Assembly (NCBI RefSeq): GCF_018977255.1
Contig: NW_024704742.1
Coordinates: forward strand, 47,556,001 to 47,620,000
From: Callorhinchus milii
Lineage: Eukaryota
DNA length: 64,000 bases
Direction of reading: 5' to 3'
The number at the start of each line of letters is the position of its first letter. Within the stretch, counting starts at the first letter, position 1. The notes beneath the pieces are model-generated. The model saw only the letters and a program-made list of their open reading frames with translations. It did no database searches and was not told the DNA's origin. This document shows, piece by piece, positions 380-22,777 of this stretch. The position numbers and the translations under genes are program-made.

Positions 380-718
380 TAATAATAATAATCCTTGCAT
401 TTAATATAATGTCTTATCAAGTCTTCGAGACGTCTCAAAGTGCTTCACATAGTATATTGTAAAGTGAATTGTCTGCATATTTTGTGGGCAAAACAGGACA
501 GCCAGTTGCATACAGCAATGTCCCACAAACAGTCGTGGATTGAAGTGACCAACTTATTACTATTATTATTTTTTGAAGCGATCCTCCAACTGGGTTCCTA
601 CTTACTGCTGGGTAAACAGAGACGCCTGGAGTAAGAAAACTTGCCTAAGGTTTCACCCCCGCCGGGAATCAAACCCAAGTCCTCTCGCTTGCGAGGCGAG
701 TATTGTAACCACTACAGG
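380..718 (-). mobile_element. tRNA-derived SINE with L2-type tail
   Basis: A/B-box-like head, ggcaagttttcttactcca core, tail ending (TTA)n; many copies in window. Confidence 0.9.
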
Positions 719-897
719 GCAGATCTTTAGCCAAAAGGCTGAGAAGTGATCCCTGATCGTACTTCTAAAAGATAATTGTATCAAGTTGAATGAAAAACCA
801 AAATGATACACAAATTGCTTTGCTTGCTTCTTGTGCAAACTTATTGTGGTGTATATCATTTGCACATGATACAAGGAATTGTGTTTACCTCTATTTA
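653..897 (-). CDS. Putative exon 8 (terminal): [25 protein letters not shown]..., stop inside a SINE
   Basis: Acceptor tctgctttttcag, open in phase 1, IYTTI motif. An internal donor (GAG|gtaaac after 889) means the gene could instead continue left of the window. Confidence 0.55.
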
Positions 898-3800
898 CTG
901 AAAAAGCAGATCCAAGCAATTTCCATCATCCAAAAGAATAGTGCAAAAATTTAAACTTTGGGAGATTAAATTTATTGATCTGTCAGTCACTAACCTCTGA
1001 GTAATACACAAATTACAGTTTGCTTATGATTTGATTGAGCAGTTTCTTCATTGCACAAAGGTGGAAAGAAGCAGTAAAACACCTTAATGAAGTTTCATGC
1101 CATTCTGGAGAGAATTGAATTAAAATCTTGAAAAATTGTTTTACAGCACTGAAAGGGCAGCCACAAAGGAGCAGGGAGACAAAAGGCTAAAAGTGGAGAT
1201 CAGAGAGAAAATGTGGTCAGTTACTTGGCTTTCACGTCTAACTCTTGAGCGACAAAAGAAAGTGAATTGGTCTAACCTATAAATATGAAGCTTCATCATT
1301 TGCACTTTAATAATATTTTTTAATAATATTCACCAACAAAATATAGTCAATTCACTTTACAGTATATTCTGTGAACCACTTTGAGACGTCTCAATGATGT
1401 GATAAGGCGCTATATCAAATTCAGGGATTCTTATTATTATGAGAAGTGATACATTACACAAAAAATTGGTTTAAAAATAATTTACAAAGATAGTCTGTAC
1501 ATTTCAGTTAGTTTTTTTAAAAGAAATAAAGATAGATTATATTTTTAACGTCCTTCCATGCAACACATCATTCATAAGCTGTGCAGGCAAACTGCTCCTA
1601 GCTCCTCTTAATGCTGCAATGTAACTGCCCGTGAGATATGCACAAGGGCAGCCTAAGGTGAATTATATTGTGATTTTTTCTCTCCCTTTCTGTAATGAAA
1701 TTCCTTATCTCACCTCTGCTTGGCACCTCAATCTAATGACCCCATTGATGGGAACTCAGCATGCACGGTGCGAGCGGCTTTTGCTCACCCTGAGGCCACG
1801 CTGTTGTCATTGTTTGTGTGTGTCTCTCTCTCCTCTGTAGGTATTTGTGAGTGTTTCTATGAGAGTGTGTCTGAGTGTGTGTGTGAGTGTGTATCTCTCT
1901 GTGTCTGTGAGTGTTTGTGTGTGTCTATAAGTGTTTATCTCTGCGTGTGTCTCTCTCTCCTTGTCTATGAGAGTGTGTCCCACTCTGTGTCTGTGAGTGT
2001 GTGCCTCTCTATCTATGAGTTTGTGTGCCCGGCTTCATTCATCAGAGAATCGAGCACAAAACACTCATTCTCACTTTCAAAGCCCTGTCTACCTCTTCCA
2101 CTGTGCCTTTGGACATCCTCCCACCTCCACCCACTGCCCTTCACCTCTCCTGACCCCAACTCCAGCTTGAGTCCAAAAACCCCTGACTGTCTAGCGCCCT
2201 GGGACATCTTTCCGACATGAAGGACGCTATAAAAGTGTAATTTGTTGTTGTTGTTGTGTGTGTCTCTCTCTTTCTGTTAGTGTGTGTGTTTGTGAGTGTG
2301 TCTCGGTGTGTGTTACTTTCTTTGGGTTGTTTGGTGGATCTCTAGGCCTTGAAGTGTAGTGTGAGATGGAAACAGAGCATTCGGCATTCTGGCCTGCTCT
2401 GGTTTTTGCCCACACACCCCAAGCCCCAAATAGGTCACGACTTTTTGTTAAAGAAACCTTTTAAAAAAATTTGCAACAAACTAATGTGTGTTATTTCATC
2501 ATGTTCAGTTTTACCAATAAAGTGAAAACGTGTAGGTTGGCAATAAAAAGTACCTTTCAATAGCACCAATCAACTTCCTGAAAATATCCACAAAATTTGT
2601 CAAATTCCCCCCCACAATTTTTGACAAATATTTCCATAATTTTCTACTGGCCCTGACCATACTTTCATTAAATTCATTAATTACCCAAGTCTGCAGTCAG
2701 TGAAAATAAAATTCTATTCGAATGTTGATTCCTCCCATATCTTACATTCTTCCTTCCTAGAAAAAGAGAACAAATTCAATTTTTTATAGAAATAAATTCT
2801 GCCGTAACACAAAATTGAACACTAAATTTTTTACAAATTTCAACAACGTCTTTCTACGTAGCAAAGTTTGAAAATGAATTCATTGTCAATCAGCAACATT
2901 CATTTCCACTGATTCAAATAAAATTAATCAGTGTAAGATACTGACCTTTTACTTAATGGCTATGATCTAGTACTGTTGCTTGAGAACCTAAATTACCTTG
3001 AGAGTGAGCTGTAGTTTCTGCAGATTGAATTGCTCTGGAAGTGGTTAAATGATCTAATCGCCATGTCTCATTTTCTTCCTGCTGAGGTTGATTAGTTTGC
3101 CTCATGAATGCTTGACCAAGTGCAAGCTGAGTTCTTGAGATTTCCACTACATTTAAAAGAAAGTGTTGTTTAGTTTTAATGTTGTCTTTTATCACCTACT
3201 CAATACAACTGCTCATCAGTGTAAAACTTAAATGTATTAAGATTATAAGTAAACCACACAGCATGTGTAAAATAGATCTAATTAACCAAATGATTTTTAT
3301 TCTTAGTAGCATAATTAATAGACTTCACATTTCACATATTTTAAGATATAATGAATAGTTTAGGTTATATATTTGAATTTATAATAATATTTGCATACAG
3401 TGCCTTTAACATTGGGAGGACATCTCAAAGTGTTTCACAGGATTTACTGTAAAGTATAATGTGTGTATTTTGTAGGCAGATGTGGCAGCCAATTTGCGCA
3501 CAGCAATGTCCCAAAAAGCTAAAAGCTGAATGACCCAATTTTATCTGTGAGAAAACTCCCACTCCTTTTCTAATAGTGTCACAGAATCTGTAACATCCAC
3601 CAGAACAGAAGGACGGGACCTCAGTTTAATGTCTGATCTGAGAAAGGCACCTCTAACATCACTCCCTCAGCACTGTTTGGAGTGGTTAGCCTGGAGTTCA
3701 AAGTCCCAACGTAGGTCCAAACCCACAACTTGCTGATTCAGAAGTGAGACTGTTACCAGCTGAACCAGGATAAACAAGTATTATGTCATATATTCAAATT

Positions 3801-6800
3801 TGTCCTTAAAGCTAACACTTGTATTTTTTCCATTAAAGGCATTTGGTCTATTTTGTAAGTAACCTCTACTAGATGAATTTAACTTTCGTTCTTCTAAAAC
3901 TATATAACAGAAGCTTCACCTTTTCTATTGATTAAGTTGGTACAGATACTAAGTCCGTTACCATTACAACCTATCTCAAATAACATTAATTAGCCCTTAT
4001 AACAACAAAACAACAAATCACATTTGTATAGACTTTTCATATCAGGAGGACGTCCTAAGGCGCTGAGCTTTATACATTGAGCCTCTGATTTATTTCGTTT
4101 TCTGGACCTTTTCTTCATTTCCAATTTTCACTGTACTGTTGTGTTTATACTGCCCAGCAGTATAGAGATTTACACTTTTGGCTCTACTTATAGTTTGAAT
4201 TTTTTTAAAAAATGTATTTCAGCATCCACACATGTGTATTGCAATATTGGAACAACCATTGATAAAAAAAACTCTTATTTCAGGAAATGTATTTTTATCC
4301 AGACTTCTCTGAAAGTTATTTGGAAACTATGGGCTATATCCTCACCACCTGCTCCGATCAGTTTGGGTATGACTTTTCTGGATTATTTCTCAGATGCTAT
4401 ATTTCATAGGAGATGTTCCAGTTTATTCTTCTCCAAATTTTATTGTTCCTTTCTTCTAATTGTTTCTCTAAGAATGTGAGGGAGCAAATGTACTTAAGCT
4501 CTCCGAAGTATAGTGTATAGTGAAGGGCACTATATAAATGCAAGTTGTTGATATAATCTGAAACTCTTGCCCGGGATTTAAAGTATATTTCTTTTAGCCA
4601 ATGTACATTTAGATTTGACCAGTTAAGTAAAAAAAAAATTTGACCAGTTAAGAGTGGTGTACATTGCAGTCTTGAGAATATTCAAATTCCTGCCAAGAAC
4701 ATTTTTAATTTTTAATCAGATTCAATTAACAGCACATTTAGCCTATGTTTGGACCTTGATAAACTGTCTGCTTATAATTCAGGAGTCACAGTGAAAAATG
4801 GTGGCTTTCACCCAAAGGTCTATCTATATGTGTGTTAGACTCAACATCAAAGTAGTTTTTAATGTTAGACATTGAGATGTCAATTTTAGACATTTTAGAG
4901 ATTGATTATTATCCAGACATTTTTCCCACTGAGCCTTAATGTTTCATACCAGAAGTGGCATTTTGCCAACTAGGGAAATTAAAATACTGTACATATTGTG
5001 AAAAAAATATTCTTGCCTTCCATCGCATCCCAATCTTGCTACGATACCACAGGAAAATTTGCTGTACTGTTTTTAAATTATACAATTTTTCATTGTAAAA
5101 ACAAAGTGGCACAAAATCGTTTATTTCCGATAATTATTTTCCTCTTTCCAGCTTTTCCTTACTAAAAGCTGTGCCAGTTTTGAGAAGCACATTTGTGCTG
5201 CCACAAGGTGATGCTTTGTAATTAGCTTTGTGGTGCCAAAATAAAAAGGCAAAAACCATTAGCACCTCCAGTGTGTTGAAACTGGTGCCCAGAGTAACAA
5301 AGTAACAAACCAAATTAACTTAATTTGGGTACATGGCTAAAAGAAATCTAAAACTAAAACAATATTGAACAAGCATTTTATAATAATAATCCTTCCATTT
5401 GATATAGTGCCTTATCACATCGTTGAAACATCTCAAAGCGCTTCACAGAATATAGTGCAAACTGAAGGGAGTGTTTTGGGCAAAACGCGGCAGCCAATTG
5501 CACACAGTAGTGGCCCAAAAACAGTCGTGGATTGAGTGTTCAATCCTTTTTTTGGGTGGGGGGAGGGACTATTACTCACAGAAAATGATCGCCAATCGAC
5601 TAACAACCGTATTCCTACTTACTGCTCGGTAAACAAAGATGTGTGGAGTAAGGAAACTTGCCTAAGGTTTCGCCCTGCCTGGGAATCGAACCCAGGCCTC
5701 TCGCTTGCAAGGCAAGCGCACTAACCACGAAACTACGGAATAATTACTTTACCCTGAGTGGCACACATGGCAGAGTGAAGCAATGAACAAGAGTTTACAT
5801 GAACACAAGCATGCGAGGCAAACCTCATGTTGCGCGTGGTGATCATCACGCATGTAGTCCTGTAGCTCAGTGGTTAGAGCACGCGCTTTGCAAGTGAGAG
5901 ACCTGAGTTCAATTCCAGGCAGGTCAGGGCGAAACCTTGGGCAAGTTTCCTTACTCCACATGCCTAATAATAATCCCTCCAAAACCAAAAACAATAATAA
6001 AATTGGTCATTTTCAATCTACGACTGTTTGTGGGACATTGCTGTGCGCAATTGGCTGCCGCGTTCGCCCACAAATATACAGTCAATTCACTTTACAGTGT
6101 GTTCTGTGAAGCGCTTTGGGATGTCCTCCCGATGTGAAAAGCGCTATATCAAATGCAAGGATTATTATTATTATTATGTAAGTATCACGGCACGCAAGTT
6201 GAACACTTAAAAGCAGGAGCACCAAGGTCAACAACGTTGCATGTGGAAAGCAGGCGACAGAACACGCAAACTCCAAACTGTCCTGAACCCAACGAGAGAT
6301 GAATTTTTAAAACGATTCCCCCCACTTTCCCCTCCTCCCCCGGACACCCCACTTCCCTGAAACACATGGACACATCAATCGATCCCATGTGTGTGTTAAA
6401 AAAAAGTCACGTAAATTTCAATCTCTGCTTCCAATTACACTAAAATTCACCCCTTTTTGCCCCAAAATACTCCCCCCCTTCCCCCACTTTTCAATGTAAT
6501 GGTTAAATTTGCCCCTTATTATGTAAAAGGAACCACTCCTCTTACTATGAGGATGCCTACAACCAAATGGTGCTGGCATCCTCATACTCCTGTAGTATTA
6601 TCAACACGGCCAAAATAATAGCTTCAAGCATTCCACAGTAATAGGAAAACTAAAGACTGTCCTTTATTTCAACAGTATAGCTCTTGTAATTTACCCTTTG
6701 CATCAGCACACTTCAGAGAATATAGTATTCATAAAAAACAGGGTTACATTAACAAAATGTGGAATCAATAAACAAATCAAAGATTTTAAACTGGAAAAAT

Positions 6801-9800
6801 ATTGAAATGCATTTTATTAGAACATTTTGGTTTGGTATTTCTTCACAATATATTATGAATAATATATGCTTTGTGATCTGTTACATATTCAATGGAAAAT
6901 TGAGGCCAGATTCTCCATTTTCACTTTTCTGCAAGTCAGAATATTCATAAATGTTGTATTGATAGTAATAACAACCACAACAAAATTACATTTGTATAGC
7001 ACCTTTCATGTCGGGAGGACGTACCATGTGTGATATAGTAAAGAGATTTATGAATTTTGGTGAACTGATGAAAAGGAAAATTTAGTCTGCCCAAAAATAT
7101 TTCTAAAGCCTTTACATTTACTTTCAATATATATCACTTTCATGTATCCAATGCTTTTGAATTTATGAACTCACAAATTTCACAACAATTTGGGAAAGAT
7201 ATCCCTTAATGAAATTTACCTGCAGTCAGACCATTTTCATATTGACTTCTTTCAGCAATGTCTTCTCGTAAACAGGCAAAGCATGATCTACAGTTTGAAG
7301 CTAAGCAGTAGAATATATTTAATTCAGACATCATTTTGAAACATTTTCTGTCAGAAACCAGTTGAAATAAACATAAGTGTTAGGTGAAGATGAATGAACT
7401 CAAACAGAGGTAAAAATTTATGTTTTTATTGATACCTCCTCAAACTATCTAAAGATCAAATCTGATAGCTGGACTCATACATTATATGCATGTGATTGTT
7501 CTCCATTGAGGCTGTATTTTTAAGGCTGAATGATTTCCTCAGAGTAAAGATAATATTTGGGAATCTTTTACCATTTGCAGTTTGCACTACTTTCAGCAAG
7601 CATTTCAGATTGGTAAAGACAAATTGTAGACCAGGTTTCCATATTGAATGGCGCAACCTTCAGTGGTGTGAAGATACCAAGCTACACTATGAATACAATG
7701 GCAATAGAGGAATATTAACAGTGTGGTGGTGTCAGAACCTGTAGTAGCAACCTAAGGAGCTAACGCAACAAGGGATTGCATACTTGATTCCCCTCACTGC
7801 TGTTCCTAATATGCCCCATGTTCGAGTGAAGGATTAGTCATGTCTGAGTGCCCTTATACACCACCAGTACCTGGATCAAAGCAACTTCGCTGTAGGCCAC
7901 AGTTAGTGTGGAGCTTGGGGAGAAAACAGAGGAATTTCATAATCTACCAAAAAGATTGAATTTACCCAAGAATGCTGAAGGAATCATTTCAGAACAGGGA
8001 CAAAATCAATTTGCACCAAATGATTTTTTTGGTGATGAAAATGCCTTGGGACATTCTTCTGACATGAAAGCCACTATATAAATGCTGTGCCTTCTGCTCC
8101 CCTCTCGACTCTCTACCCCCTCCTCGCTCCCTCCCTTCCCTCCCCTCACCCTGACCATTTCCCCCCTGCTCGGGTCCCGACCCAACTGTCCAGCGCCTTG
8201 GGACGTCCACCCGACATGAAAGGCGATCTATAAATGCAATCTTCATGTTGTTGTTGTTGTAAATATAATTTGTTGCTGTTATCAGGGTAAGTTATGCAAG
8301 AAATGTCTATTCTCAGAATAGGTTATGTGCACAGTGGATTACAACATTGCCCTGTTTGTCTACAATATGGCTTGAATGTCAAAATGAATGGGCTGAAAGT
8401 ATTTTTTCTGTGCTTGCTGGAAATGTCTATGTGTAATGAGTTGTGACAGTTTTAATTTAATTCTTCGCAACATGTGTGCCTGAATCAGAAAACTGCTTAC
8501 AATTTAGCATGAGATTGTTGGGCCATGAAACCATGTGTGTAAGAAATTAAAGTGTGCTTGTTCAACAATGGCACCCGTTTATATTGTGCATTTCATGTAA
8601 AAGAATGTCTCGAAGTGCTTCACAAAACAAGATTAAGTAGAAATGAATAGTGATGTTATGGAGGCAAACATTCAGTAGGAGGGCTCTTTTGAGTTTGGTG
8701 TTAAGATACATTTTCTTTGTCATTGTCTAGCGATAGTAACTTTAAATGCAATCTGTTATTCTTAATCTAAACATCCTCAGTAACGACACCAAGTGTAAAA
8801 ACATTTTCCATTATTCAGCTCTATCACCCTCACTTTGATGATGAAAAATTCAGTTTTTTAAAAAGAAATCGAATTTTATGTAAAAGGGAATATAAAATAG
8901 GTCTATTTTTCTGATGAAAAAGATTGAGTTTATATGGCACTAACCTTTGCAGGATGAATCTTCTTTGAACCATTGGTAAGATATGATGATAAGTGAAATA
9001 ACACAGATTGTTGGGAATAAAGCTAACCAAATATATTCACGGGTACAATTCGGCTCTGCAGATAAAAATACAAAAAATGAAGATTACAATAAAAGATAAT
9101 TAACCATTAGTTTTTTTTAGAAGTCTAAACTGCATTTATAGATTTGCTTCCTCTGCAGAAAATATTGCAAAGAAAATAGATTTAGACCTTTACCTTGCCG
9201 CTGAACAAATATACGATTGATTACAAATATTATTTTCAAATTATATTCAAAAGTATGTTGTGATCCTAATGAAGTAGTATTGTTTTATCTACTAACAGAC
9301 CACACACAATCAAGGGTAATTTTCAATATAACTATTTATAACAATCTTACTTAATATTAGTGATAAATAGCAACTATTTGTCCAGATTTATTCTATAAAG
9401 GTAATTGACAATTTTGCCACTCAACAACAACAAAATTACATTTGTATAGCGCCTTTCACGTCGGGAGGTTTTGAAACTAAAGAAGGAGGGGGCAGAGGGA
9501 TTTCAGAAGTGAGGTCCGGAGGGTGTGGTAAATAGCTGATAGCTCGTCCACTGATGGTAATAATAATATAATAATAGTAGGACAGAGTTGTCAGGGAGCA
9601 CAAAGTAAGACATTTTTCCTGTACATTTAAAATTGTTCAAGGCAAAACCAACCTAAATACGGATCACAAACCTGCCCATAACATCACTCGCATTGCTTGT
9701 TATTTAATGTAAGGACATATTTTTCTACCAACCAGCAATAATTACACCTAGGTTGTGCTTTATGCCAGAGACATCAGGATTTAATAAGGGATTTCTAATG

Positions 9801-12800
9801 GGATTTCTCAATAAGGAAATGTGAAGTACATTTCGCAGACTCATAGGAACTTCACACTGATGCAACCTACTTCCAGAGCAAAGTTCTTGATGATTTTCCA
9901 GTTAACTGAAGGTATCCCCACTCGGTTCCTTTATTGAAGAAACTAGTTAGAAGTTGTCGCACATTAGAGCCCAAGTTGTCATACTAACCTTCTTGTTGAT
10001 CATTGCTGGATTTCTGCCATTGGACTTGTGTGAAGCACTCTGTGGTTTGTGTTCCATTTGGTGAAAGAACACTCCAGGCAACATTAATACTTTTAGGCAA
10101 AGGCTCTATAGTGCTTGTGTTGATGTCTGCAATTTAAATGTGGATAATGTATTTAGTTACAGCTGTAAGGAAACGTTCACGCATTAGAATTTTCATAAAT
10201 GCAGGACAACTTAATAAACCACAATATTGTTAAAGCTAAATAGATAAAACTAAACAGTTGAGCACAATGCTCTTGTGTTCTTAAGATAAGCTACAAATCA
10301 ATAGCGTTTTGGAATCTTTAAAGATATAAAGCTCACCCAAAAGAAGACCTAGATCCCAAATATAACAGCCTGATACAGCAGGCTAAATATGATCTCCAAT
10401 ATATAAAAATAACCCTGTATTTTTAAAGCAACTTATCACATTATAGTGTCTCTAAACACTTCATGGGTAATTACAATAACAAATGTTATTTCAGGTAAAG
10501 GTAACAGCCTGACTGAGTTGGTCGCATTCTTGTCTCTGAGTCAGGACTTGGGGCTCACTTTGGGACTCACATGGTCTAGGCTGACACTCCAACACAGTCC
10601 TGAGGGTGAACCGCATTGTTGTTGGTGCCATCCTTCAGATGAGATATTAAACCAAGGTCCCGTCTACCTGTTCCAAGTGGATGTTAAAGATCCCATGGCA
10701 CTATTCAAAAAGCAAAGGGAATGTCTCCATTATCAACTCATGGCTGTTTGTAGGACAATGCTGTCTGAAATTGGCTGCTGTTTTCACCACCAAAATTCAG
10801 TCACAATTGGCTGAAAGGCCTTCTTTTGTGGCGTAAATAAGGCGCTATATCAAATTCCTTGCATTTGATATAGCGCCTTATCATGTCTCGAAGACGTGAT
10901 AGGACGCTATATCAAATGCAAGTAATATTATTATTATTAGAATTGAGTCAACCCTCTGTGACAGTCTCTGGTTTCTGAGCTAGGTGGTACCTAACCTCAA
11001 AGAACATCTTTGGATCCCCAAGCCTTGGCTCTCACAAACCTATGTATAATAATGTCTGGAATTGGGTAAGCAGGGTTTGTCAGGGGAAAGCACACATTCC
11101 ATTGGACACAGCAAAAATTCCATGTGTGGGTGGCAAGCACGGCAATGGGTTTCCACATGTCAGACACCTGGCTGAAAAATTAGTTGACTTTATCAAACCC
11201 TTTCTTAATTTTGTAAACTTCCATTAGATTCCCCTGTATACCACTGTAAAGTAAAATGCATCATTAATACTTGATAGATTTGCAACTTACTTTGAATAGT
11301 GATTACTACATGATTAATTATAGTTTTGTAACACGGATCATTGATTACATCCATTGTGACTGTATGATGAATATCTTGGCTGGAGCTTTTCTCATTGGAA
11401 GAATTGTTGCTTGGTTGATTTCCTGCAGTAGTGTTCTGAATTTCCATTTCCATGTTACACTTCGTACTTTTCATTCCATTTGCTGAACTGTAGTTCCAGG
11501 TAGCATTAAATTTCTTGGGGAAGGGTAAGACACATCTCTTCGAAATAATGTCTCTTCCTGTGATAACATTGCTGTCTCTTACATATATTATCATGGTTGA
11601 TACTGTGTACAAATTGATAGATGTTATTAATTTGACACACAAAATAAACAAAGACCTGAAATGAGAATTCAGCAATGAATGCAGTTGAAAATGTATTTTT
11701 TTTCCAAACCAGAATTCACTGGTCTGAGTGATTTTCAATTTACTTGCATGATTCACAACAAAACTGTATAAAAAAGAAGTCATACCAAAAAGGTCATACA
11801 AGAATTTGATCATGAATGCCAGGAAAAGGTATTTTACACCCAATATTTTGCTTTCCTTCTTTCATTGCAATTTTTGCTTTAACGAGTGAAATAATTGATG
11901 GTTTTGCTGATTAATAGAATCATAGAATCATAGAATGTTACGGCACAGAAGGAGGCCATTCGGCCCATCGAGTCTGTGCTGGCTCTTTGACAGAGCAACT
12001 GACTTTTATTAACCCCACTCAGCTTTCTCCCCATAACCCTGCAAACCTGTCTTCCCCAGATACCTATCCAGTTCTCTCTTAAAAGCTGTTATCGAATCGG
12101 ACTTCACTGCCCTTTCGGGCAGATCATTCCAAATTCTAACAACTCGCTGAGTGAAAAAATTTCTTCTAACCTCTCCTCTGCTTCTTTTGGTGACCACGAG
12201 TCACAGACATACCTACCAGCGAAAATAGCTTTTCCCTATCTAGCCTGTCGAAACCTTTCATGATCTTGAAGACCTCTATCAGGTCCCCGCGTAACCTTCT
12301 CTGCTCTAATGGGAAAAGTCCTAACTTTTCCAGCCTGTCCTCATAGCTAAGGTTCCCCATTCCTGGTATCATTCTCGTGAATCTCCTCTGCACCCTTTCC
12401 AGTGCCTTAATATCCTTCCTGAGGTAAGGTGCCCAGAACTGGACACAGTACTCCAGCTGAGGCCTAACCAGTGTTTTGTACAGATTAAGCATAACCTCCC
12501 TACTCTTATACTCTATGTCCCTACTAATGAAGCTCAGTACACCAAATGCCCTTTTTACTGCCCTATCTACCTGCTCTGCCACCTTCAATGAATCGCTTAC
12601 TTGAATGCCCAAATCTCTCTGTACGTTCACCCCCCTTAAGATTGAGCTACCAAGCCTATATTGCCTCCTATCATTTTTCCTACCTAAGTGTATCACCTCG
12701 CACTTATCTACATTGAAATCCATCTGCCACATGTCAGCCCATTCCACCATTCTGTGTATGTCTGCCTGCAGTCCATCACAATCTTCTTCACTATTTACTA

Positions 12801-15800
12801 CTCTAACTTGGTATCATCTGCAAACTTGGAAATAGTGCTCCCTATGCCCAAGTCCAGATCATTAATATATATTAGAAAGAGCAGTGGCCCCAATACCGAT
12901 CCCTGGGGGACACCGCTGCACACCTCCTTCCATTTCGAGAAACACCCATTAACCACCACCCTCTGCATTCTGTCACTCAGCCAGTTCCTAATCCAAACGG
13001 CTGTGGTCCCCTTAATACCGTGGGCCTCCAGTTTTTTTATTAACCTCTTATGCGGTACTGTGTTAAAAGCCTTTTTAAAATCCACGTAAATAATGTCCAC
13101 CGCATTTCCCTCATCAACCCTCGCAGTCACCTCTTCAAAAAATTCTATTAGATTTGTTAGGCAAGATTTGCCTTTAACAAATCCATGTTGGCTGTCTCTA
13201 ATTACCTCGTGTTCCTCTAAGTAGAGATTTATTTTGTCCCGGATTACGGTCTCCAGTAGCTTTCCTATTACCGAAGTTAGGCTGACTGGCCTGTAATTTC
13301 CGGGCTTGTCTTTCTGCCCCTTTTTGTAGAGTGGGGTAACATTAGCTACTCTCCAGTCTCTTGGCACCACTCCTGTGTCCAATGACGATTGAAATATAAT
13401 GGCCAAAGCCTCCGCTATTTGAACCCGTATCTCCCACAGCAACCTTGGGTGAAACCCATCTGGTCCTGGTGACTTATCAATTTTGAGCCCAGTCAATCTT
13501 TTCAGAACTTCCTCTCTGTCTATAGTAATCTGATCTATGTCCTCTACCCTGTCATCCAATACTGTGGCATTTGGGGCATCCGTTTCCGTTGTGAAGACAG
13601 ATGCAAAGTACTCGTTTAGTACATCAGCCTCTGCCTCCACAACAAGATTGCCGTCATTGACTTTGATTGGCCCCACCCTACCTTTAACTAACCTTTTTTC
13701 CTTTATGTGCTTATAAAATATTTTAGGATTCCCCTTTATGTTACCCGCTAACCTCTTCTCATGCGCTCTTTTAAGATCACTCCTGCATTCTCTATAATGC
13801 GCTTTGCTATCCTCAGTGTCTTGCATCCGCCAATTGTCGTTCGCCATCTTCTTCTTTTTCATCCTAGACAGAATATCCCTGGTCATCCAAGCAGGCTTGG
13901 TTCTCGCACATTTCCCTTTTGTGGGAATGTATCTATTTAGACCCTGAGCTATCGTATCTTTGAAGATTTCCCATTGCTCATAAGTCATTTTACCTGTATA
14001 ATATCCACCTGAACAACTAGACGAGATCTTGGTTTGATGTCTCATCCGAAGAAGCTGCTATAATTAGCACAATTGTAAATATAATTTTTCGATCCCAATG
14101 TCTGCTAAGCTGTAAAAAGCTTCACTCATTTTACTGAGTGAAAGGCAAGAGGGTAAATTACGTACCATAAGCATTCAAGAGTTAAATCCACAAAGGGAGT
14201 TCCTTAACTACTGGAATGTTGAGTTCTGTAATCGAACATTACCACAAGCAGTTTGTTTTCCTGCACGGAAATTATACTCACTGCATTCTGGTAAATTAAG
14301 ATTAAAATTCTGATTTCCTTAGATAAGACTTTGAAAAGTTTAAACCATGTATGAGATAAATATACAATTGCTTACTCAACATTAATTTACAGATCTAATG
14401 ATGTTCTTTATATTGAACTCAACTAAATGGAAAAAAACATAATATCACAAGATAAGATATAACATCCATTTTTATAAATGTCCTGTTTCTATTGAGTGAA
14501 TTAAATAACACAATTTCACCAAGTAATTATAACTATTTTGGTAATAATGTAATTATTAAAAGCAATACTGTTAGTTTTTACATAAAAGCACAGACACCAT
14601 AAGTATTCAGAATGGGTTTAGAAGCAATAAGTCACACAACAACAAACAACAAATTGTATTTATACACTGCCTTTTACATTGGGAGAATGTCCTAAAGGCT
14701 TTGGACAGTTGAGAGTTTGCACCTGAGCTGGGGGGTGGATTCCCAAGGGTTGGGGCCAATGGTGGCAAGGGTAGGAAGATAACCGAAGGCACAGGACCTT
14801 GAAGGAGGCGAGGGAAGACACAAAGCAAATGGACCCCGGAACGGAGTTCCAGAGTGTAGGGAAAGAAAGGCTGAAAGTCTGATTGTGGACCAGGCAGGGC
14901 AGGGACGGGAAGCAAGACAGTGTCTGCCAAGCCGAGGGAGGGAGCGGATTGGTAGGCTTTTGGAATGTCACAGAGGTAGACCGTGGAGGGATTTAAAAGT
15001 AAGAGCAAATGATCTTGAACTCAATCCTCTGGGGGATGCGGAGCCAGTGTAGCCAAGCAAGTAAGGGGCAGTGAAAGGCTTGCTCTGAAGATGGAGCTGA
15101 GAGGAAAGGAAGAATAAAATGGCCGACACATCATAAATCTAATGAATTTCTTAAGGAAATAACTAAATCAGTAGACAAAGGCTATGAAAATGAAATATTT
15201 TAAAGAATATTTATTTAATTAATTGTAATTTAGCATGTTGGATTGAAAATTATTTTGTGGTAGAAAGGGGAAGGTGATAATGTGAAGGGCGCTGCTTGGA
15301 ACCGGGAGTAAAAGAACCGGGGGAAGGCCCAGATGAACATATTTTAGGGCACTCCATGAACAGAGAACCTGTCCCTATGGATCCATTGCACGACCAGAAA
15401 CAATATTCAAATAGACAGTCACAACACTTTACAGTAAAATCTAATGAGGAGCTTTGAGACATCTCAACGACATGATAAGGCACAATCTCAGACATAAAAC
15501 CGTCAAATGCGCCTGTATCAAAGGATTATCATATGGCTGACAGTACTCTAAAAACACAGCACAAATGTATAACCTTACCTTGTGAAGACAATTTCTGCCT
15601 CATTGTATGATTTTCTCTTGTGTCAGTTTTACATATAAACCAGCCTATGGCTACGAACTGCAGACTAATGTTCTGACAGACATCCTTTCTTTGAGTCTTT
15701 TCAATATTGGAATGATTGAAAGAGATCGTTATCTCAGCCATACTTCTTCGACTGCCATTTTGTGAACAGTTTGTGTTTGTGGTAATGTTCATCAATTCAA

Positions 15801-18800
15801 GTGGAGACAGATTAGCTGCTTTGTCTGAAAAGTTCAGGTCAATGCAAGCCACCATGAGGATGTTAAAGTTACCTGTATACAGAAGAAAACTCAAGTCAAT
15901 TTTGGAGATGAGCATCACAGGCATGAAAAAATAATTGACAGCACCATTGCTGCTAAAGTAACATAATGGACAGCAGTTCACATTCTACGTCCCTCATGAA
16001 GCAAAGATTGTGGCCTGCACGGGGATCGAATAGACCATGATTAGTACCATGCTCAAATCAACTGAGCTAACCGCCCTCAAACTTGGTCAAGATGCATCTT
16101 ATAACAGGTTATTTAATGAATCAGGAACCAAGGTCAATTGGCTCACCTTATGTGTGCTAGTGCTTGCTCACCCTCCACCCCCCTCCTACAGCGTCTATCT
16201 ATTCTAATCCCCGTTTTTCTCAATTCCCTTCAATATTATTTTTCTTGAAGTACTATATTTATCGAGGTCTCTTATAAATATTATTATGAATTTAACATCA
16301 ACAGTCACTTGTGATAAGTTATTTAATATTCTAACAACCAATCCTGAGTTAAACCTAAATCGATTGTAAAGAAGGCATGTTTATTTCCTGCGTGCTGCAC
16401 TCTAGTTGTCCAGGAACATTATGCAGGAACCAATAATTTCTATTTACTTTTTTTTTAAAATTTCAATTAGAAACTGCTGTACTTTCAATATTTTTTTTAA
16501 TGAGGGAACTTCTGTTGGGTTCTTTTGTAAATATTGCGAAATTGGCCAAGAACGAAAAGTCCCTCCAAAAATATTCCATCCGAAGATTAAACCAGTAAAT
16601 AGATGATTCATAAATGTGAAGTTAGTGAATGGTGTTATAAATGGGTTTTTTATAATTCAAAACAGTTTACTCTATAACCTATCCTCTTCGGGGGGAGGTA
16701 AGAGGCGTCTCCTTGGAGCTGAACTGGCTCCAAGGTTATACGTTGGGCAACGGTATAATAATAATAATAATCCTTGCATTTGATATAGCGCTTTTCACGT
16801 CGGGAGGACGTCCCAAAGCGCTTCACAGAATACACTGTAAAGTGAATTGACTGTATATTTGTGGGCGAACGCGGCAGCCAATTGCGCACAGCAATGTCCC
16901 ACAAGCAGTCGTAGATTGAAAATGACCAATTTATTATTATTTTTGGTTTTGGAGGGATTATTATTAGGCGTGTGGAGTAAGGAAACTTGCCCAAGGTTTC
17001 GCTCTGCCTGGAATTGAACTCAGGTCTCTCACTTGCAAAGCGAGTGCTCTAACCACTGAGCCACAGGACTCCACAGGTATGTTGGAATTGAGCCAGCCTT
17101 CTATAACGGTCTCGGTTGTCTGGTTCCTGAGCGGCATCACAGTACTCCAGGGGCACTACTGATGACAGCAGAGCCAACTTGGCTCATTGGCAGAACTTGG
17201 AAAGACAGACCAGTCACTGGGGGCAGGGAATCATTCCACTCAGCTCCTGTTAACCCTGCAAGCCAAGGCCCTAACTTGTAGGGTGGTCCTTGCTGGACAA
17301 GCAGCGGGAAAGTTTGCCAGACAGCAATATCAATGGCAAACTATGGGGTTTTTGTTGGTCAGACTCCAGCAGTACCCCAATGCACACTCTGGGGTTCCCC
17401 AGCCTTGGGAGTCCCTCCAGGGAGAGAGTGCGCATTCCATTCCAACAATCTATCTCTGGGATGCATGGAATTCTGGTTTGGATACTCTTAAACATGATGA
17501 TGAGTTTCCGTACGTGTCAGATACTCGGCTGACCAAAAAAAATGTTTTCCTGTGTCCACTTTTAATCTTAAAAACAGAGCTGTCATTTAGATAGCAGTAA
17601 TGACAGTCAGACGTCATGTAACAACAGAAACTCTAAATGTATCTTACTTGTGCTTTCACTTCCTTTATACTTGTATATTTCCTTTATATTTCAAACTTGT
17701 CTCGTCCCAAGGAAGCCTACACTAGCTCCTACATTAAGCTTTGTGAATCCATTACTGCCAATCTTGGCCAGCTCTAGTGGCTCCCTATGGATTGAGTTTA
17801 AGATTTTCATCTTTACCTCTGCTTTCAAAACCCGTCCAAGATATATCTCTTCATCTGCCTTAATCATTAAAATGTTGTTAAACTTTGTTTATTAAATCCA
17901 AGGAGTATTATTTTTATTTTAACTAAGCTTTCCTAAATATATCTGTAACATGAACATGAAATTTAAAAAGATAAATGTACCTCTAATAAAATAATAATCC
18001 TTACATTTGATATTATGCCTTTTACTTTGGATGATGTCTCAAAGTGCTTCCCAGGATATATTGTAAAGGGCCGTAACTATGTGTTTTGTAGACTGTATTA
18101 AGGTTTTTTTTACATATAGATAATAAAGCATATCATAATAATATTAGCCATGTAGCCAAGTTTTCTAAAACATGGTCTTTAACCTCCTGAGATGATTACA
18201 TTTCTATGCAAAGTAAAACAGTTCCCTTAACTTCATCATTAAGAGCAATTCCACATCCGAGAGAGAAATTTGTACAGGTATTGGTGTTGATATACAGTCA
18301 ATTCACTTTACAATATATTCTGTGAAGTGCTTTGAAATATCTCGAAGAAGTGATAAGGCGCTTTATAAAATGCAACAATTACTATTATTATTATTATGAG
18401 TCTCAGTGTAAGAGCTAGTAGTGGAAAAATACTTCTAGTTTGCAGCTTAATGTACCACTGAGCCCAATTCTCTTAAAATGAAGCCTCAAATGCATTGCCT
18501 ACTCAATTTTGCCATATTTATTTTGTCCCCTGCATTAACAAAAAGCTGAATATATCTACATGTAATGATTATTAAACCCATAAGCCTTGAGTAATGAACA
18601 AAACTGTAACTAATTTCAATTTTAAGATAATGTATTTTAGTAAATATTGAAAACAATGGTACATGATTTTTCAATTTAGAAAAATGCATTTCTAAATCAT
18701 TCAGAAACCATTAGGTTTTAACAGCATATTTTTCAAAAGTCACTTAGTATTTGGATAGAACAATCATATTAAAAAATATGCACATTACTGCTTGAATTTC

Positions 18801-21800
18801 CTATTCTCACCAACCAAAATATTTCCATCAAACATTTTCATACCAAATGGACCATTTAGTCATAAATATGTCAAGTTTAATAGAATCACCATTACTTCCA
18901 TAATAAACAGCAATGGGCATTTGAAACTTAAAGGAAATATTGAGTTTGATTTTAAATGCATTATTGAGATTGGTAGTGATCGCTAATGTCTATACCAGGG
19001 CTAGTTTCGAAAGCACCATCAACCTAAATATTATCATTTTGTGTTCCCATTAAAACAATACAGTATATATTTTTTCAATCCACCACAGTTTAAATAGGGA
19101 TAGCGTGCCTGTCCACAGCACATCACTCTCTAGCATTTAGTCTCCCTAACTATGATTTTAAAAACCTGAACTAATATACCTTTCCCCTTTTTTTGGGTTC
19201 TATTGCCTGATCAATAAGAAAAGCAGTGGTCTTAAGAGGTGTGTGAAAGTACCCCAAGTTTACCAGCGAAGGATAAAACAACACAGGTTTAGCGATGTGA
19301 AGGGCAATTTTAGGTTAGACATTAAAAATTATTTCTTTACACACAAGGCAAACATTTTCTTTCATTTGTCTTTGCCTTAACAGTCTATTTCTAGCTATAC
19401 AAGCGTTTCTCAGTTTCTTAATGTGTTACTTTTGTGACCTAATCTGTCACTCTATCTTCAAGTCAATTCTTGTCAGTCACTGCATTCATCAGCACCACTA
19501 CCAAGTTTCTCTCTACAAAGGAAATATTGTACAAATTCTCTCCCATCTCCTCTTGCATAGAATCCTGTGTTGCAAGAACAACACGACAAAAGATATGTGG
19601 TTTGTAATGTTACTCATTACACAACACCAATTTTACAATCTCTTTCGCTGAGAACAGTGCTAAAAAAACACAATAAGCAAAATGATGGTTTTCTACTCAC
19701 TCCATCAATATATGTCTATCCAGCAATAAAACTTTTCTTAGCCAGATTCGCAAAAATAATTAAAAACGCAACCATTTCAATAAAAAAGGAGTGCTCCTGT
19801 CTATTTATTGTGTTGCAATCTATTAGCATTATGGAACAGGAATTGCAAAGATGAAAGATTTATAAAAATAATTTTGCAGGAGGATTCCCTAAGTTATGTT
19901 GTGTACTCTAGGTTACGGTGTGAAAGAAGGAGAATTGTTTTTTCCATTTGAAGCTACAAGTTGAAAATTGGAGTCAGAGTTGAGAGAGGTCAGGATCTAA
20001 AGCTGCAAGTCAAGGTTGTGGCTGGAGTCAGAGTGTTGATAACAGCTGTAAAGTCTGAACACAGCGAGCATGTACAGGTGATGTACAGGTGATAGGTGAC
20101 GCCAGGACTGCTAAATCCGAGTCAAAAGTAAATTAGAGATGATCAAGAAATTACTCAAATTAATTTAATGAGGACTTTCCTATTCACGTTAGTTTACAAC
20201 AACAACAACAACATGCATTTATACAGCACCCTCCACGACGGCTGGTGTCTCAAAGCGCTTAATAATGGTGGAGCCCGAGGCCGAGCCGGGGGAGGGGGAA
20301 GGTGAACCTAGGCGCGGTCAAAGAGGAAGGTCTTCAGACGCGACCTGAAGATGGGGAAGGCGGGGGTGAGGCGAAGGGGTTGAGGGAGAGAGTTCCAAAG
20401 TTTCGGGGTATAGTGGCTGAAGGCACGGCCGCCGATGGTGGAGCAGAAGATTCGGGGGACGCGGAGGAGGACGGAACCAGTAGAGCAGAGGCAGCGGGTA
20501 CTGCTGTGGGGAGAGAGATGGGGGGAGGGGGGCAAGAAATGGAGGGATATAAACACTAGAGTGAGGATCTTGAAGTCGATCTGCTCTGTGACAGGGAGCC
20601 AGTAGTGTTCAGCAAGGACTGGAGTAATCGAGGTACGAAGTTTGGTGCGCGTGATAATGCAGGCGGCGGAGGTTTGAATGAGCTGACATTTTGTGAATAG
20701 TGGACGAGGAGGAAGTTAGAGTAGTCCAGCCGAGAGGTGACAAAGGCATGGACAAGGGTTTCAGCAGCTTTTGCGGTGAGGTATTGTCAGAGACGGGCAA
20801 TGTGACGGAGGGGGAGGAAAGCGATGCTGTTCAGGGACCGGATGTGGTGGAGGAAGGATAACTAGGCTCGAACCTAACGCCTAAGTTGCGTACGGTTTCG
20901 GAGAGTTTTAAGGACAGGTCGGGTAGGTTGAGGCGGTCGGAACCATGGGACAGAAGACATCGTCGGGAGCCAAAGAGTATAGCTTCTGTCTTGTTTAACT
21001 GCAGGAAATCTGGGCTCATCCAGCTCTTGATGTCCGATAGACAAGCTGACAGAACATCAGGTGACTGGGGGTCACAGCTGGAGGTGGAAAAGTAGAGTTG
21101 AGTGTCATCCGCATACATGTGGAAGTTAACCCCGTGTCTGTGGATGACATCACCGAGAGGGAGCATATAGATGAGGAAGAGAAGGGAGCCAAGGATGGAT
21201 CCTTGGGGTTTCCTGTAGGTGACCAGGTGGAAGCGCAAGGAAAAGCCATTTGCATAAATGTAGTGCTGGCGGTTTGTAAGGTAGGACTCGAACCAAGCGA
21301 GTGCAGTCCCACCGAGGTAGATGATGGAGGACAGGCGGTGGAGGAGGATGGCGTGATCGACTGTGTCGAACATGGCGGAGAGGTCCACGAGGACGAGGAG
21401 GCAGAGGGAGCCCTGGTCACAGATAGAGAGGATATCGTTTGTGACCTTCACGAACGCTGAATCTCTACTGTGGCCAGGGAGGAAACTGGACTGGAGGGGT
21501 TCGAATAGGGTGTGGAGGGAGAGGTGTGCGCGAAGTTGGTTGGCAACAACGTGTTCCAGCGCTTTCGCAAGGAAGGTCAGGTTTGAGATAGGGCGGTTGT
21601 GGTGAGGTTGGTGGGATCGAGGGTAGGTTTTTTAAGGAATGGGGTGATGACTGCGGTTTTGATGGGGAGCTGTCTGCCCCCCAGTGTTGCCAGCAGTGGG
21701 CAGAGGAGGGGGAGCTGGGTGATCAGCAGTTGGATGGGGAAGGGGGTCGAGGTAGCAGGCGGTGGGTTTCATTATTACTGTCTGGGGTTTAGGTTAGACA

Positions 21801-22777
21801 CATTTTGTTAGACCAGAGTAAAGAGAGCTTATCTTTGCATCTAATTGTGCTCATCTGGAAGTGTTCAATTCTGGCAATGTGCACAAACAGTGTTTCACTG
21901 TTCAACACTGTCATCTCTCATTTTGATGAGGAAAATTAAATATTCTACAGAAACAAAATGTTCAACACAATTCAATATTTACTGATCTAAAGAATGAATT
22001 TATACGATTTTCTGAAATAAATTCTTGGATCATGTTCATTTAGATATTTTACAATGGGAATACGGCAGGAAAACATTAAATTCCTCTTTTTTTTAGATCA
22101 ATAATGCTGTATTTCACATTAGGCATTCTGTTACAGGTTATGGATTTATCTCATTCACTCCAGTTTAAAGAAAGAAAAAGTTAAAATAGCAAAAAACATG
22201 CAAAGAGGAATAACAACAACAAAGAGAGCCATACCAGGAAGTGTCTTCCAATTTTTATCTAAAATTTGGGGATTGCTTAATAATGTGTTCAAGAATGCAG
22301 TTCTTGCGAGTTATAAAATTATCCCAAATGGTAGCTAAATCTGACACGTATAGCTTCCTAGTGAGAACACTTGTGAGTAATACAAATAAGAAACTATGAC
22401 ATTTGATCAGTTTACGTTTTAACTAAAAAGTGAGCCATGAACTTACATCATAAAATAACATTCACTGCTAAACATTTTATTTTCCACCCTACATTGAAAG
22501 AAGCAAGATCGGAATGAAGCACTATAAATCTTCCATTCAAAAATTTGTTCAGGAACAACTTGAAGACATTTTCAGTTTGTGCTGTAACTGAAACGTGCTA
22601 CACTGCATCAGAAGAGGAACAACAATTTCACTTACTGAATCTTTATACGGGATACCATAAAAACTATTTCAAATCTGTGTGACTCTTACCTTCAGATGGA
22701 GTAAACAATTCAGAAAGGCAGATCATATAAACAGCCAGGGCAATTGTTATTAGCTTCATAAGGATCATTCTTGTCAT
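653..22777 (-). CDS. Spliced CDS (8 exons, ~472 aa) of an unnamed type I membrane glycoprotein / Ig-superfamily-like receptor: join(22690..22777,15579..15872,11291..11602,9989..10126,8945..9055,7220..7300,2997..3146,653..897)
   Basis: All seven introns are GT-AG and phase 1. Internal exons are 294, 312, 138, 111, 81 and 150 nt, all open in the joined frame. Total 1419 nt = 472 codons + stop. Order signal peptide - glycosylated ectodomain - TM - Tyr tail is coherent. The last exon is least certain. Confidence 0.8.
1812..2027. repeat. Complex (GT)/(CT) microsatellite; similar tract at 2255-2312, with an L2 3' fragment between
   Basis: Direct inspection. Confidence 0.9.
2997..3146 (-). CDS. Exon 7: cytoplasmic ([17 protein letters not shown]...AETTAHSQ)
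   Basis: Acceptor ctttcttttaaatgtag, donor CAAG|gtaatt, 150 nt, within ORF 2953..3195. Confidence 0.8.
5381..5738 (-). mobile_element. tRNA-derived SINE, full length
   Basis: Head GTGGTTAGTGCG...GGTTCGATTCC; same body and tail as other copies. Confidence 0.92.
5857..6175 (+). mobile_element. tRNA-derived SINE, short young subfamily
   Basis: TAGCTCAGTGG A box, GTTCAATTCC B box; candidate ATGTA target duplication; near-identical to 16757-17075. Confidence 0.95.
7220..7300 (-). CDS. Exon 6: cytoplasmic ([27 protein letters not shown])
   Basis: Acceptor attctactgcttag, donor GCAG|gtaaat, 81 nt, open in phase 1. Confidence 0.8.
8043..8260 (+). mobile_element. Two tandem L2 3' tails
   Basis: gccttgggac...gacatgaaag twice, ending (TTG)n. 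Confidence 0.75.
8945..9055 (-). CDS. Exon 5: transmembrane exon ([37 protein letters not shown])
   Basis: Acceptor ttttttgtatttttatctgcag, donor AAAG|gttagt, 111 nt, ~21-residue uncharged hydrophobic segment. Confidence 0.9.
9989..10126 (-). CDS. Exon 4: membrane-proximal partial repeat/stalk ([46 protein letters not shown])
   Basis: Acceptor tttaaattgcag, donor GAAG|gttagt, 138 nt, protein similarity to exon 3. Confidence 0.85.
10505..10830 (+). mobile_element. Old Deu-domain SINE (AmnSINE/SacSINE-like); other copies at ~3400-3770(-), 23715-24070(+), 28820-29100(+), 50790-51180(-), 62720-63090(-)
   Basis: Core gatgagatattaaaccaaggtcccgtctacctgttccaagtggatgttaaagatcccatggcactatt recurs in these copies, usually after a tRNA-like head. 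Confidence 0.75.
11291..11602 (-). CDS. Exon 3: degenerate Ig-like domain 2 (VSTMIIYV...[15 protein letters not shown]...DPCYK...ITIQ)
   Basis: Acceptor aatttgtacacag, donor CAAA|gtaagt. Cys followed 12 residues later by Trp. 5 sequons. Lies inside ORF 11205..11843. Confidence 0.85.
11914..13990 (-). mobile_element. CR1-clade LINE, 5'-truncated, relatively young; ORF2 reverse transcriptase broken by frameshifts
   Basis: [43 protein letters not shown] motifs; (ATTCTATG)n 3' tail at 11914-11936. Confidence 0.97.
14637..15065 (-). mobile_element. Old L2 3' fragment
   Basis: [17 protein letters not shown]; (TTG)n-like tail. Confidence 0.75.
15579..15872 (-). CDS. Exon 2: degenerate Ig-like domain 1 ([10 protein letters not shown]...AIGWFIC...KLSSQ)
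   Basis: Acceptor ttttcttctgtatacag, donor CAAG|gtaagg. Cys pair 71 residues apart, the second in a G-x-F-x-C F-strand-like motif. 8 N-x-S/T sequons. Confidence 0.85.
16011..16076 (-). pseudogene. Decayed tRNA-Ile(AAT)-like sequence (pseudogene or SINE head)
   Basis: gggcggttagctcagttgatttgagcatggtactaat..ttcgatccccgtgcaggcca resembles vertebrate tRNA-Ile(AAT), with deletions in anticodon and T arms. Confidence 0.7.
16757..17075 (-). mobile_element. tRNA-derived SINE, short young subfamily
   Basis: TGGCTCAGTGG and GTTCAATTCC boxes; GGTAT duplicated at 16752-16756 and 17076-17080. Confidence 0.95.
17076..17542 (+). repeat. Unclassified interspersed repeat (fragments also at ~10940-11180+, 27580-27770-, 30960-31620+, 32080-32120-, 36995-37140+, 44430-44470-, 61065-61155-)
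   Basis: Shared blocks gacagaccagtca..ggggcaggga, taacc.t.caagccaa, and 3' gatgggtttcc..tgtcagacacctggctgacc(A)n. Confidence 0.75.
20196..21770 (-). mobile_element. L2-clade LINE, 5'-truncated
   Basis: [35 protein letters not shown]; (TTG)n tail. Confidence 0.95.
22690..22777 (-). CDS. Exon 1: signal peptide [29 protein letters not shown](G)
   Basis: ATG at 22777 (acaATGa), hydrophobic core, donor GAAG|gtaaga, 88 nt (phase 1). Confidence 0.85.

Follow-up and report, generated by a model that had tools for sequence, protein, structure and literature searches.

The window analysed here is a 64,000-nucleotide (nt) stretch of the Callorhinchus milii genome (contig NW_024704742.1, positions 47,556,001 to 47,620,000 of the forward strand). 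On its minus strand lies a multi-exon gene for a predicted membrane glycoprotein, which in contig coordinates extends over about C1:47550481-47578777. The gene has at least 10 exons, 8 of them within the window, and, judging from the order of the genes around it, is most probably the cartilaginous-fish orthologue of TMEM156, with a sequence similarity to that family that remains below threshold. The locus had previously been described from its letters alone as an eight-exon gene for an eroded, fast-evolving leukocyte receptor of the immunoglobulin (Ig) type (hereafter, the original prediction).

The eight-exon minus-strand model was rebuilt from that description. Exons E1 to E8, when joined, give 1419 nt that are translated into 472 amino acids (aa) and a stop; all introns are GT-AG, and the lengths of E2 to E7 are multiples of 3, all in phase 1. 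The GT-AG phase-1 introns, the 472-aa frame and the run of six consecutive internal exons divisible by 3 were thus all reproduced in the DNA. E1 (22777-22690, minus strand, as all the exons that follow) starts with the ATG at 22777 and encodes a hydrophobic leader, either a signal peptide or a signal anchor, before the phase-1 donor gtaaga at 22689. The first ectodomain module is encoded by E2 (15872-15579, 294 nt) and the second by E3 (11602-11291, 312 nt), both flanked by strong splice sites; in E3, the motif INATW-YSS-NG-K-T-C is conserved. E4 (10126-9989, 138 nt) contributes a stalk module that is an internal repeat of the E3 core, while E5 (9055-8945, 111 nt) holds a juxtamembrane Cys, the transmembrane (TM) helix and the start of the tail. 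The tail continues in E6 (7300-7220, 81 nt), a Cys-rich juxtamembrane piece in which YENG is the first of the YxN motifs, and in E7 (3146-2997, 150 nt), a degenerate copy of a tail module. E6 and E7 are the best-scoring pair that fits the previously given length, and E6 is the top-scoring 81-nt phase-1 candidate. The last exon had been placed at 897-653, a proposal for which no support was found; the probable exon 8 is at 2756-2685 (72 nt, phase 1-1), where the acceptor has the top score in the region (8.3). The model goes beyond chance: the open frames around E2 and E3 extend over 151 and 218 aa, respectively, in DNA of 37% GC, and E1 to E5 have shark and ray matches (see below).

In the 472-aa frame, the TM helix begins at residue 286, 16 NxS/T sites lie N-terminal to it, and a tail of 165 aa follows. 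The layout initially described, a signal peptide, an ectodomain of ~255 aa, one TM helix and a tail, was borne out by the N-terminal hydrophobic leader, the 16 NxS/T sites, the single TM helix and the tyrosine-bearing tail. The ectodomain of ~255 aa is predicted to be heavily N-glycosylated and to consist of two cysteine-bearing modules of ~100 aa each, the second of which is followed by a half-repeat of itself (46 aa). According to the alignment of the family, the E2 module has four cysteines, of which 3 or 4 are retained in most orthologues, and many NxS/T sites. The 46-aa half-repeat, found in E4, matches the E3 core with a BLASTP E of 5e-08, and the same repeat occurs in sharks and rays, as seen from tblastn cross-hits. 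A comparison of E2 with E3 for an internal repeat gave no detectable likeness.

Relatives of the protein were found in sharks and rays. A phmmer search with the E3 peptide against 1.84 billion representatives gave six matches at E ≤ 0.001, four of which (P0001, P0002, P0004 and P0005, with E from 6.7e-14 to 1.9e-06) form one family; the matches to shark and ray proteins have E between 6.7e-14 and 6.2e-10. The other two, P0003 (2213 aa) and P0006 (588 aa), are long repetitive proteins and were dropped by inspection. Members of the family are named 'uncharacterized protein' in Narcine bancroftii (XP_069781036.1), Heterodontus francisci (XP_067884850.1) and Cetorhinus maximus (LOC144683384, XP_078402503.1), and the source of P0005 is a transcript assembly. 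Searching with the Cetorhinus protein added Carcharodon carcharias LOC121283302, Mustelus asterias LOC144509100 and Scyliorhinus canicula LOC119962984, as well as sequences from Mobula birostris, S. torazame and Chiloscyllium (chiPu_0003063). In this search, 11 of the 2120 candidates had E ≤ 0.001, all of them chondrichthyan and all labelled 'uncharacterized' or 'hypothetical'. The family, seen so far only in cartilaginous fishes, as had been anticipated, is already public in sharks and rays as uncharacterised loci. What is new is the C. milii gene model, since no C. milii model containing E3 was present in the protein collections searched (the phmmer representatives and word-based searches with E3).

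With the orthologues as tblastn queries on the locus, the shark and ray proteins aligned to E1 to E5 collinearly and in the same frame, with limits that agree with the predicted exon edges. Identities were 70-77% for E1 (6/11 orthologue queries with N-terminus, best E ~5e-11), 36-54% for E2 (7 orthologues, best E 4e-26), 37-42% for E3, 37.5-48% for E4 (best E ~1e-10) and 55-78% for E5 (9 orthologues). By these values, conservation is much higher in the leader (70-77%) and the TM exon (55-78%) than in the ectodomain (36-54%), and the gene is fast-evolving, as first described, in the sense that divergence is quicker in its ectodomain than in its leader and TM helix. For a cleaved signal peptide, conservation so far above that of the ectodomain between chimaera and shark or ray is unusual. 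In the lamnid isoforms (Cetorhinus and Carcharodon), the leader exon is followed by six additional residues, of which the first three match the read-through of the E1 donor at 22679-22689 (SEGKSH versus SEGKNH); this extension may reflect an alternative donor or an annotation artefact.

The chimaera gene and those of sharks and rays share collinear exons E1 to E5 with the same edges and the INATW..NG..C motif together with its half-repeat; their tails are likewise composed of modules of the 'G-EN..QQEA.VY.NEIQ' type and EY(A/E/T)N(F/V)L segments. They differ in that module 2 of C. milii lacks two of the shark cysteines and has one of its own, in the order and number of the tail modules, and in the C. 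milii E7 copy, which has lost both tyrosines.

Transcript evidence comes from run X1, which is taken as RNA by the guess of the tool alone. One X1 contig of 226 nt lies exactly on 9989-10126 (E4), with 18 and 70 further letters flanking it, and another of 213 nt falls inside E3, on 11337-11549. A third contig (337 nt) is placed on 2996-3146 (E7) and 8945-9040 (E5), and the 81 unlisted letters between the two pieces, exactly the length of E6, probably correspond to that exon. E3 occurs once in the genome, which makes it improbable that these contigs stem from a processed copy. With regard to the junctions that RNA reads had been expected to confirm, splicing in the X1 contigs agrees with the predicted limits of E4, E5 and E7, while the junction from E7 to the exon at 897 found no support. 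Together with the conservation of frames, phases and exon edges in sharks and rays, the spliced contigs uphold the claim that this is a real gene. When the runs were searched with E3, 5 of the 12 listed contained the stretch and none of them was recorded as RNA. In runs X8-X10, a 20-kb stretch gave repeat-derived contigs only, and its uncovered bins at E1 and E2 are uninformative.

A fourth X1 contig, of 252 nt, matches exactly at 8576-8827 (minus strand) in intron 5, 118 nt past the E5 donor. Reading through this donor leads to a stop after one codon, a TATAAA is found just before the end of the contig, and two ray isoforms (Mobula, 316 aa, and Narcine, 288 aa) also end shortly after the TM helix. 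The contig may represent an isoform that lacks the tail and has its 3' end within the intron; contigs as such cannot show ends.

The gene was found to run on through 2756-2685 and off the start of the window. The 3' part of the exon proposed at 897-653 falls in a dispersed repeat at 382-713, a short interspersed nuclear element (SINE) with three more copies in the next 40 kb downstream, and the exon had no similarity to the tails of the shark and ray orthologues. Consequently, exons E1 to E7 of the original prediction were kept, and both its E8 and its length of 472 aa proved wrong. The 337-nt X1 contig tracks the genome for one base beyond E7, a G, and then differs over its last 8 letters. 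Since the discarded exon begins with T and the exon at 2756-2685 begins with GA, the contig fits the latter and not the former. This exon has a weak match to the 'NNIRxGSNQ' tail module of sharks (phmmer E 1.3).

As the minus-strand gene continues beyond the start of the window, 40 kb of that sequence (L006) were taken. Two tail exons were located there on the minus strand. The nearer one (L006:7492-7656), 2.3 kb outside the window, represents a copy of E7 and matches the shark 'QQEAxVYxNEIQ' module with a phmmer E of 0.0012, and the farther one (L006:4481-4606, 5.4 kb beyond) matches the shark EYAN(V/F)L segment with an E of 0.0072. E7 and the nearer exon share 80% nt identity over 103 nt, but both module tyrosine codons are gone from E7, and its used donor sits where the L006 copy encodes YANL. 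From this comparison, E7 is read as a recent duplicate of the downstream tail exon that has since decayed. A third candidate, about 3.8 kb beyond the window start, was excluded from the model because it lacks a phase-1 donor. With 2756-2685 and the two outside exons, which like exon 8 we infer to belong to the gene, the reading frame is uninterrupted over 512 aa, and the internal exons are all multiples of three in phase 1.

Several points count against this extended model. E6 was positioned by its length and splice score and not by an alignment; visual inspection suggests a likeness to CRS..L.E...Y..N of the sharks, and its BLASTP comparison with the Carcharodon protein was not significant. 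The support for 2756-2685 consists of the match at E 1.3 and one contig base, the outermost exon has a poor acceptor, and the excluded candidate at ~3.8 kb still has a phmmer E of 0.034 to Mustelus. The assignment of X1 to RNA by a guess is to be counted with them.

The identity of the gene was approached through its neighbours. On one side, exons of the DUF719/FAM114A type are found at C1:47518390-47522456 (plus strand) and, beside them and outside the window, a TIR domain at C1:47505365-47505808 (minus strand), in an 849-aa open frame that represents an intronless TLR1-family-like gene. On the other side, an exon with a BACK domain (KLHL-type) is found at C1:47649635 (plus strand), ~30 kb past the window end, followed by RFC1 at C1:47752986-47754825 (minus strand). 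The gene is convergent with its FAM114A-type neighbour and divergent from the KLHL-type one. In chicken, the order given in the available text of one study is RFC1, KLHL5, TMEM156, FAM114A1, TLR1B, TLR1A (PMC5767321), and a 0.25 Mb duplication at human 4p14 is described, in the accessible part of another, as containing FAM114A1, TMEM156 and KLHL5 (PMC5673001). The C. milii gene therefore has the position of TMEM156, between the FAM114A-type and KLHL-type genes and within the block from TLR to RFC1, and occupies the TMEM156 slot since the order of the five-gene block matches that of chicken. Synteny with the divergent neighbour had been suggested as a check: that neighbour is a KLHL-type gene, and the block corresponds to the surroundings of TMEM156. 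A gene that had been left unmatched to any named one is thereby placed.

Sequence comparison gave two faint leads in the same direction. The Pfam model of TMEM156 (PF15106) matched 2 of the 12 family sequences weakly, with E of 0.046 and 0.061, and in a language-model search the TMEM156 cluster came at rank 2 with a score of 0.80. The evidence that speaks against orthology is of the following kind. PF15106 scores P0017 highest, with 13.5 bits, followed by P0004 with 13.1 bits, compared with a gathering threshold of 27 bits, and the match is confined to profile positions 155-215 of 226, that is, the juxtamembrane and TM region. The TM stretch is also scored by the unrelated TM families Orf78 and COX2_TM, and 10 of the 12 sequences have no PF15106 match. 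The language-model score of 0.80 lies in a range that shuffled proteins attain in one third of cases, and a herpesvirus glycoprotein cluster takes rank 1. No bony-vertebrate TMEM156 was recovered by phmmer with E3 among the 1.84 billion representatives or by a word-based search with P0004, and the neighbour is assigned to the KLHL type, not to KLHL5 itself. The Atlas search by language model with E3 gave nothing usable. Since the Pfam threshold is not reached, the orthology is inferred from position.

One competing explanation is a chondrichthyan-specific gene, unrelated to TMEM156, that occupies its place between FAM114A1 and KLHL5 or has replaced it there. Such a gene would account for the absence of significant sequence similarity to TMEM156, for orthologues that are all named 'uncharacterized' and not TMEM156, and for a tail far longer than the 226-position Pfam model allows. 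It would not account for the same slot in a conserved block of five genes, convergent with FAM114A and divergent from the KLHL gene, nor for the shared plan of a leader, a glycosylated ectodomain and a single TM helix. In addition, two independent weak leads pick TMEM156, one out of 24,736 Pfam families and the other out of the 7.7 million clusters of the Atlas. When the PF15106 model was run against the whole genome exon by exon, an insensitive search, its one match was the poly-Ile tail of a SINE, and no other TMEM156-like locus appeared. An unrelated occupant of the slot is therefore considered unlikely.

Compared with TMEM156 as described by PF15106, the cartilaginous-fish gene thus shares the slot (TLR1-type / FAM114A1 / X / KLHL5-type / RFC1) and the leader, glycosylated ectodomain and single TM helix. 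As differences, there is no significant sequence match, and the cartilaginous-fish proteins have 447-615 aa with long YxN-rich tails, while ~17 positions of the Pfam model remain beyond the TM stretch that it matched and the Atlas cluster is represented by a protein of 291 aa. Taking gene model, transcripts, relatives and position together, we consider it likely that this is an expressed multi-exon membrane-glycoprotein gene common to chimaeras, sharks and rays, and most probably the TMEM156 orthologue.

The Ig-superfamily assignment of the original prediction was not sustained. It would make the gene an eroded Ig leukocyte receptor of the CD2/SLAM, CD226/TIGIT, BTLA or CD4/LAG3 kind, and a new Ig family of cartilaginous fishes. 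The likeness to such receptors (CD2/SLAM, CD226/TIGIT, BTLA) is in the general plan, with a leader, two modules of ~100 aa, a TM helix, several tail exons, phase-1 introns and tyrosine motifs in the tail, and one domain per phase-1 exon is what such a receptor would have. Symmetric phase-1 exons are, however, common among extracellular modules generally. At the sequence level, Pfam gave no match for E2 alone and only non-Ig matches for E3 alone at E ≤ 10. For the 12 family sequences, 14 families were listed at E ≤ 10, none of them Ig, and for 7 orthologues no Ig family was found at E ≤ 1. E3 of C. milii alone has a Cys-Trp-Cys spacing at 23/35/89 that would suit an Ig domain, but Cys23 is absent in all 8 aligned orthologues, and the conserved Trp (of INATW) stands 13 residues before the first conserved Cys instead of after it. 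In E2, the conserved Trp is 3 residues before the last Cys.

The fold was also approached through structures. The family profile had no match among PDB sequences at E ≤ 10. AlphaFold2 models reached a mean predicted local distance difference test (pLDDT) value of 38.2 for the Mobula orthologue (12-row alignment) and 47.5 for E3 (9 rows), too poor to judge the fold; their secondary structure is strand-rich, as an Ig domain would be, and no confident sandwich was obtained from either alignment. In Foldseek against the PDB, the better of these low-confidence models (pLDDT 47.5) had no match at E ≤ 0.001. The top rows were herpesvirus gB fragments with E 0.35, which are meaningless at such a model confidence. 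The proposed check by AlphaFold and Foldseek thus recovered no Ig fold from low-confidence models. With no Ig Pfam match in 12 sequences and no Cys-Trp-Cys conserved in 8 orthologues, membership of the superfamily is unsupported by sequence, and an eroded Ig receptor is quite improbable, although the structural models do not speak against an Ig fold.

That the exons are open frames arisen by chance, or parts of a pseudogene in decay within repeats, can be dismissed as extremely improbable, since introns full of fragments of long interspersed nuclear elements (LINEs) and SINEs, the absence of a gene model in the collections searched and thin read evidence (four listed contigs at depths of 2.7-6.4) are outweighed by frames, phases and exon edges conserved between chimaera and shark or ray, by 512 aa without stops and by the existence of spliced contigs.

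The window has 150 open frames of at least 80 aa; scanned with Pfam, they gave reverse-transcriptase fragments only and no domain of a neighbouring gene. These RVT_1 fragments, of the LINE type, are at 12801-14057, 20834-21631, 37155-37532 and 57797-58783, the first two in introns 2 and 1, on the strand of the gene itself. A long imperfect simple repeat rich in CA/TG, read as THTHT.. and CVCVC.. frames, covers 1733-2340. Between 34001 and 36000, GC rises to 0.60 compared with ~0.38 around it, with simple frames of the poly-Q/poly-N type; this region is probably a CpG-island promoter or the first exon of the divergent KLHL-type neighbour.

The cytoplasmic tail stands out by its many YxN motifs. 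In the revised C. milii tail, 4 of the 6 tyrosines are in YxN, and the corresponding ratios in seven shark tails are 7/11, 6/9, 5/9, 4/6, 6/13, 4/11 and 1/4 (the last one being Mustelus), at an Asn frequency of 0.07-0.10 in these tails. The tail modules are phase-1 cassette exons, with up to four repeats in S. torazame, and vary among isoforms and species. When phosphorylated, pYxN is the preference of the Grb2 SH2 domain, and LAT and LAT2/NTAL have several such docking sites for SH2 domains of the Grb2 family behind a TM helix with juxtamembrane cysteines. With several YxN tyrosines in its cytoplasmic tail, the C. milii protein has motifs of the LAT/LAT2 type, and its YxN sites likewise stand behind a TM helix and juxtamembrane cysteines. 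This is a likeness of design and not of descent, since LAT and LAT2 have almost no ectodomain while here there are ~255 glycosylated residues, and no homology is claimed.

The YxN-rich tail suggests a Grb2-type docking function, and the conserved leader and TM helix suggest roles beyond targeting and anchoring; the leader may be an uncleaved anchor. In a mechanism of this kind, proposed from motifs and exon structure, the ectodomain would bind a ligand or partner, and the conserved TM helix would pair with another membrane protein. The tail tyrosines would be phosphorylated, and the resulting pYxN sites would dock SH2 adaptors of the Grb2 family. Exon duplication and alternative splicing would determine how many docking modules the tail carries. 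More tentatively, cartilaginous fishes could have kept an ancestral, signalling-competent TMEM156 with a variable array of Grb2-type YxN exons that was shortened or lost in bony vertebrates, and its ectodomain could have a fold absent among solved structures; this wider proposal is possible and still doubtful.

Among the papers listed, all of them expression or association studies, the accessible text describes no function for TMEM156, and the chicken study states in its available part that there was 'no literature available' on it (PMC5767321). The picture of early Ig-receptor evolution is left unchanged, because the proposal of a new immunoglobulin-type receptor probably does not hold for this gene. 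The present analysis adds a missing gene model to the reference cartilaginous-fish genome and ties together the shark and ray genes listed as 'uncharacterized LOC'. Through synteny, it also ties these chondrichthyan genes to TMEM156, which has no known function and, according to the accessible text of the literature, appears in expression signatures of lymphoid and B cells. With its modular exons and many YxN motifs, the tail offers an idea of the family's function that can be tested. If true, it would be the first mechanistic hypothesis for TMEM156, and signalling strength in this family would be adjusted as cassette exons duplicate and decay, of which E7, a fresh copy minus both tyrosines, would be an example.

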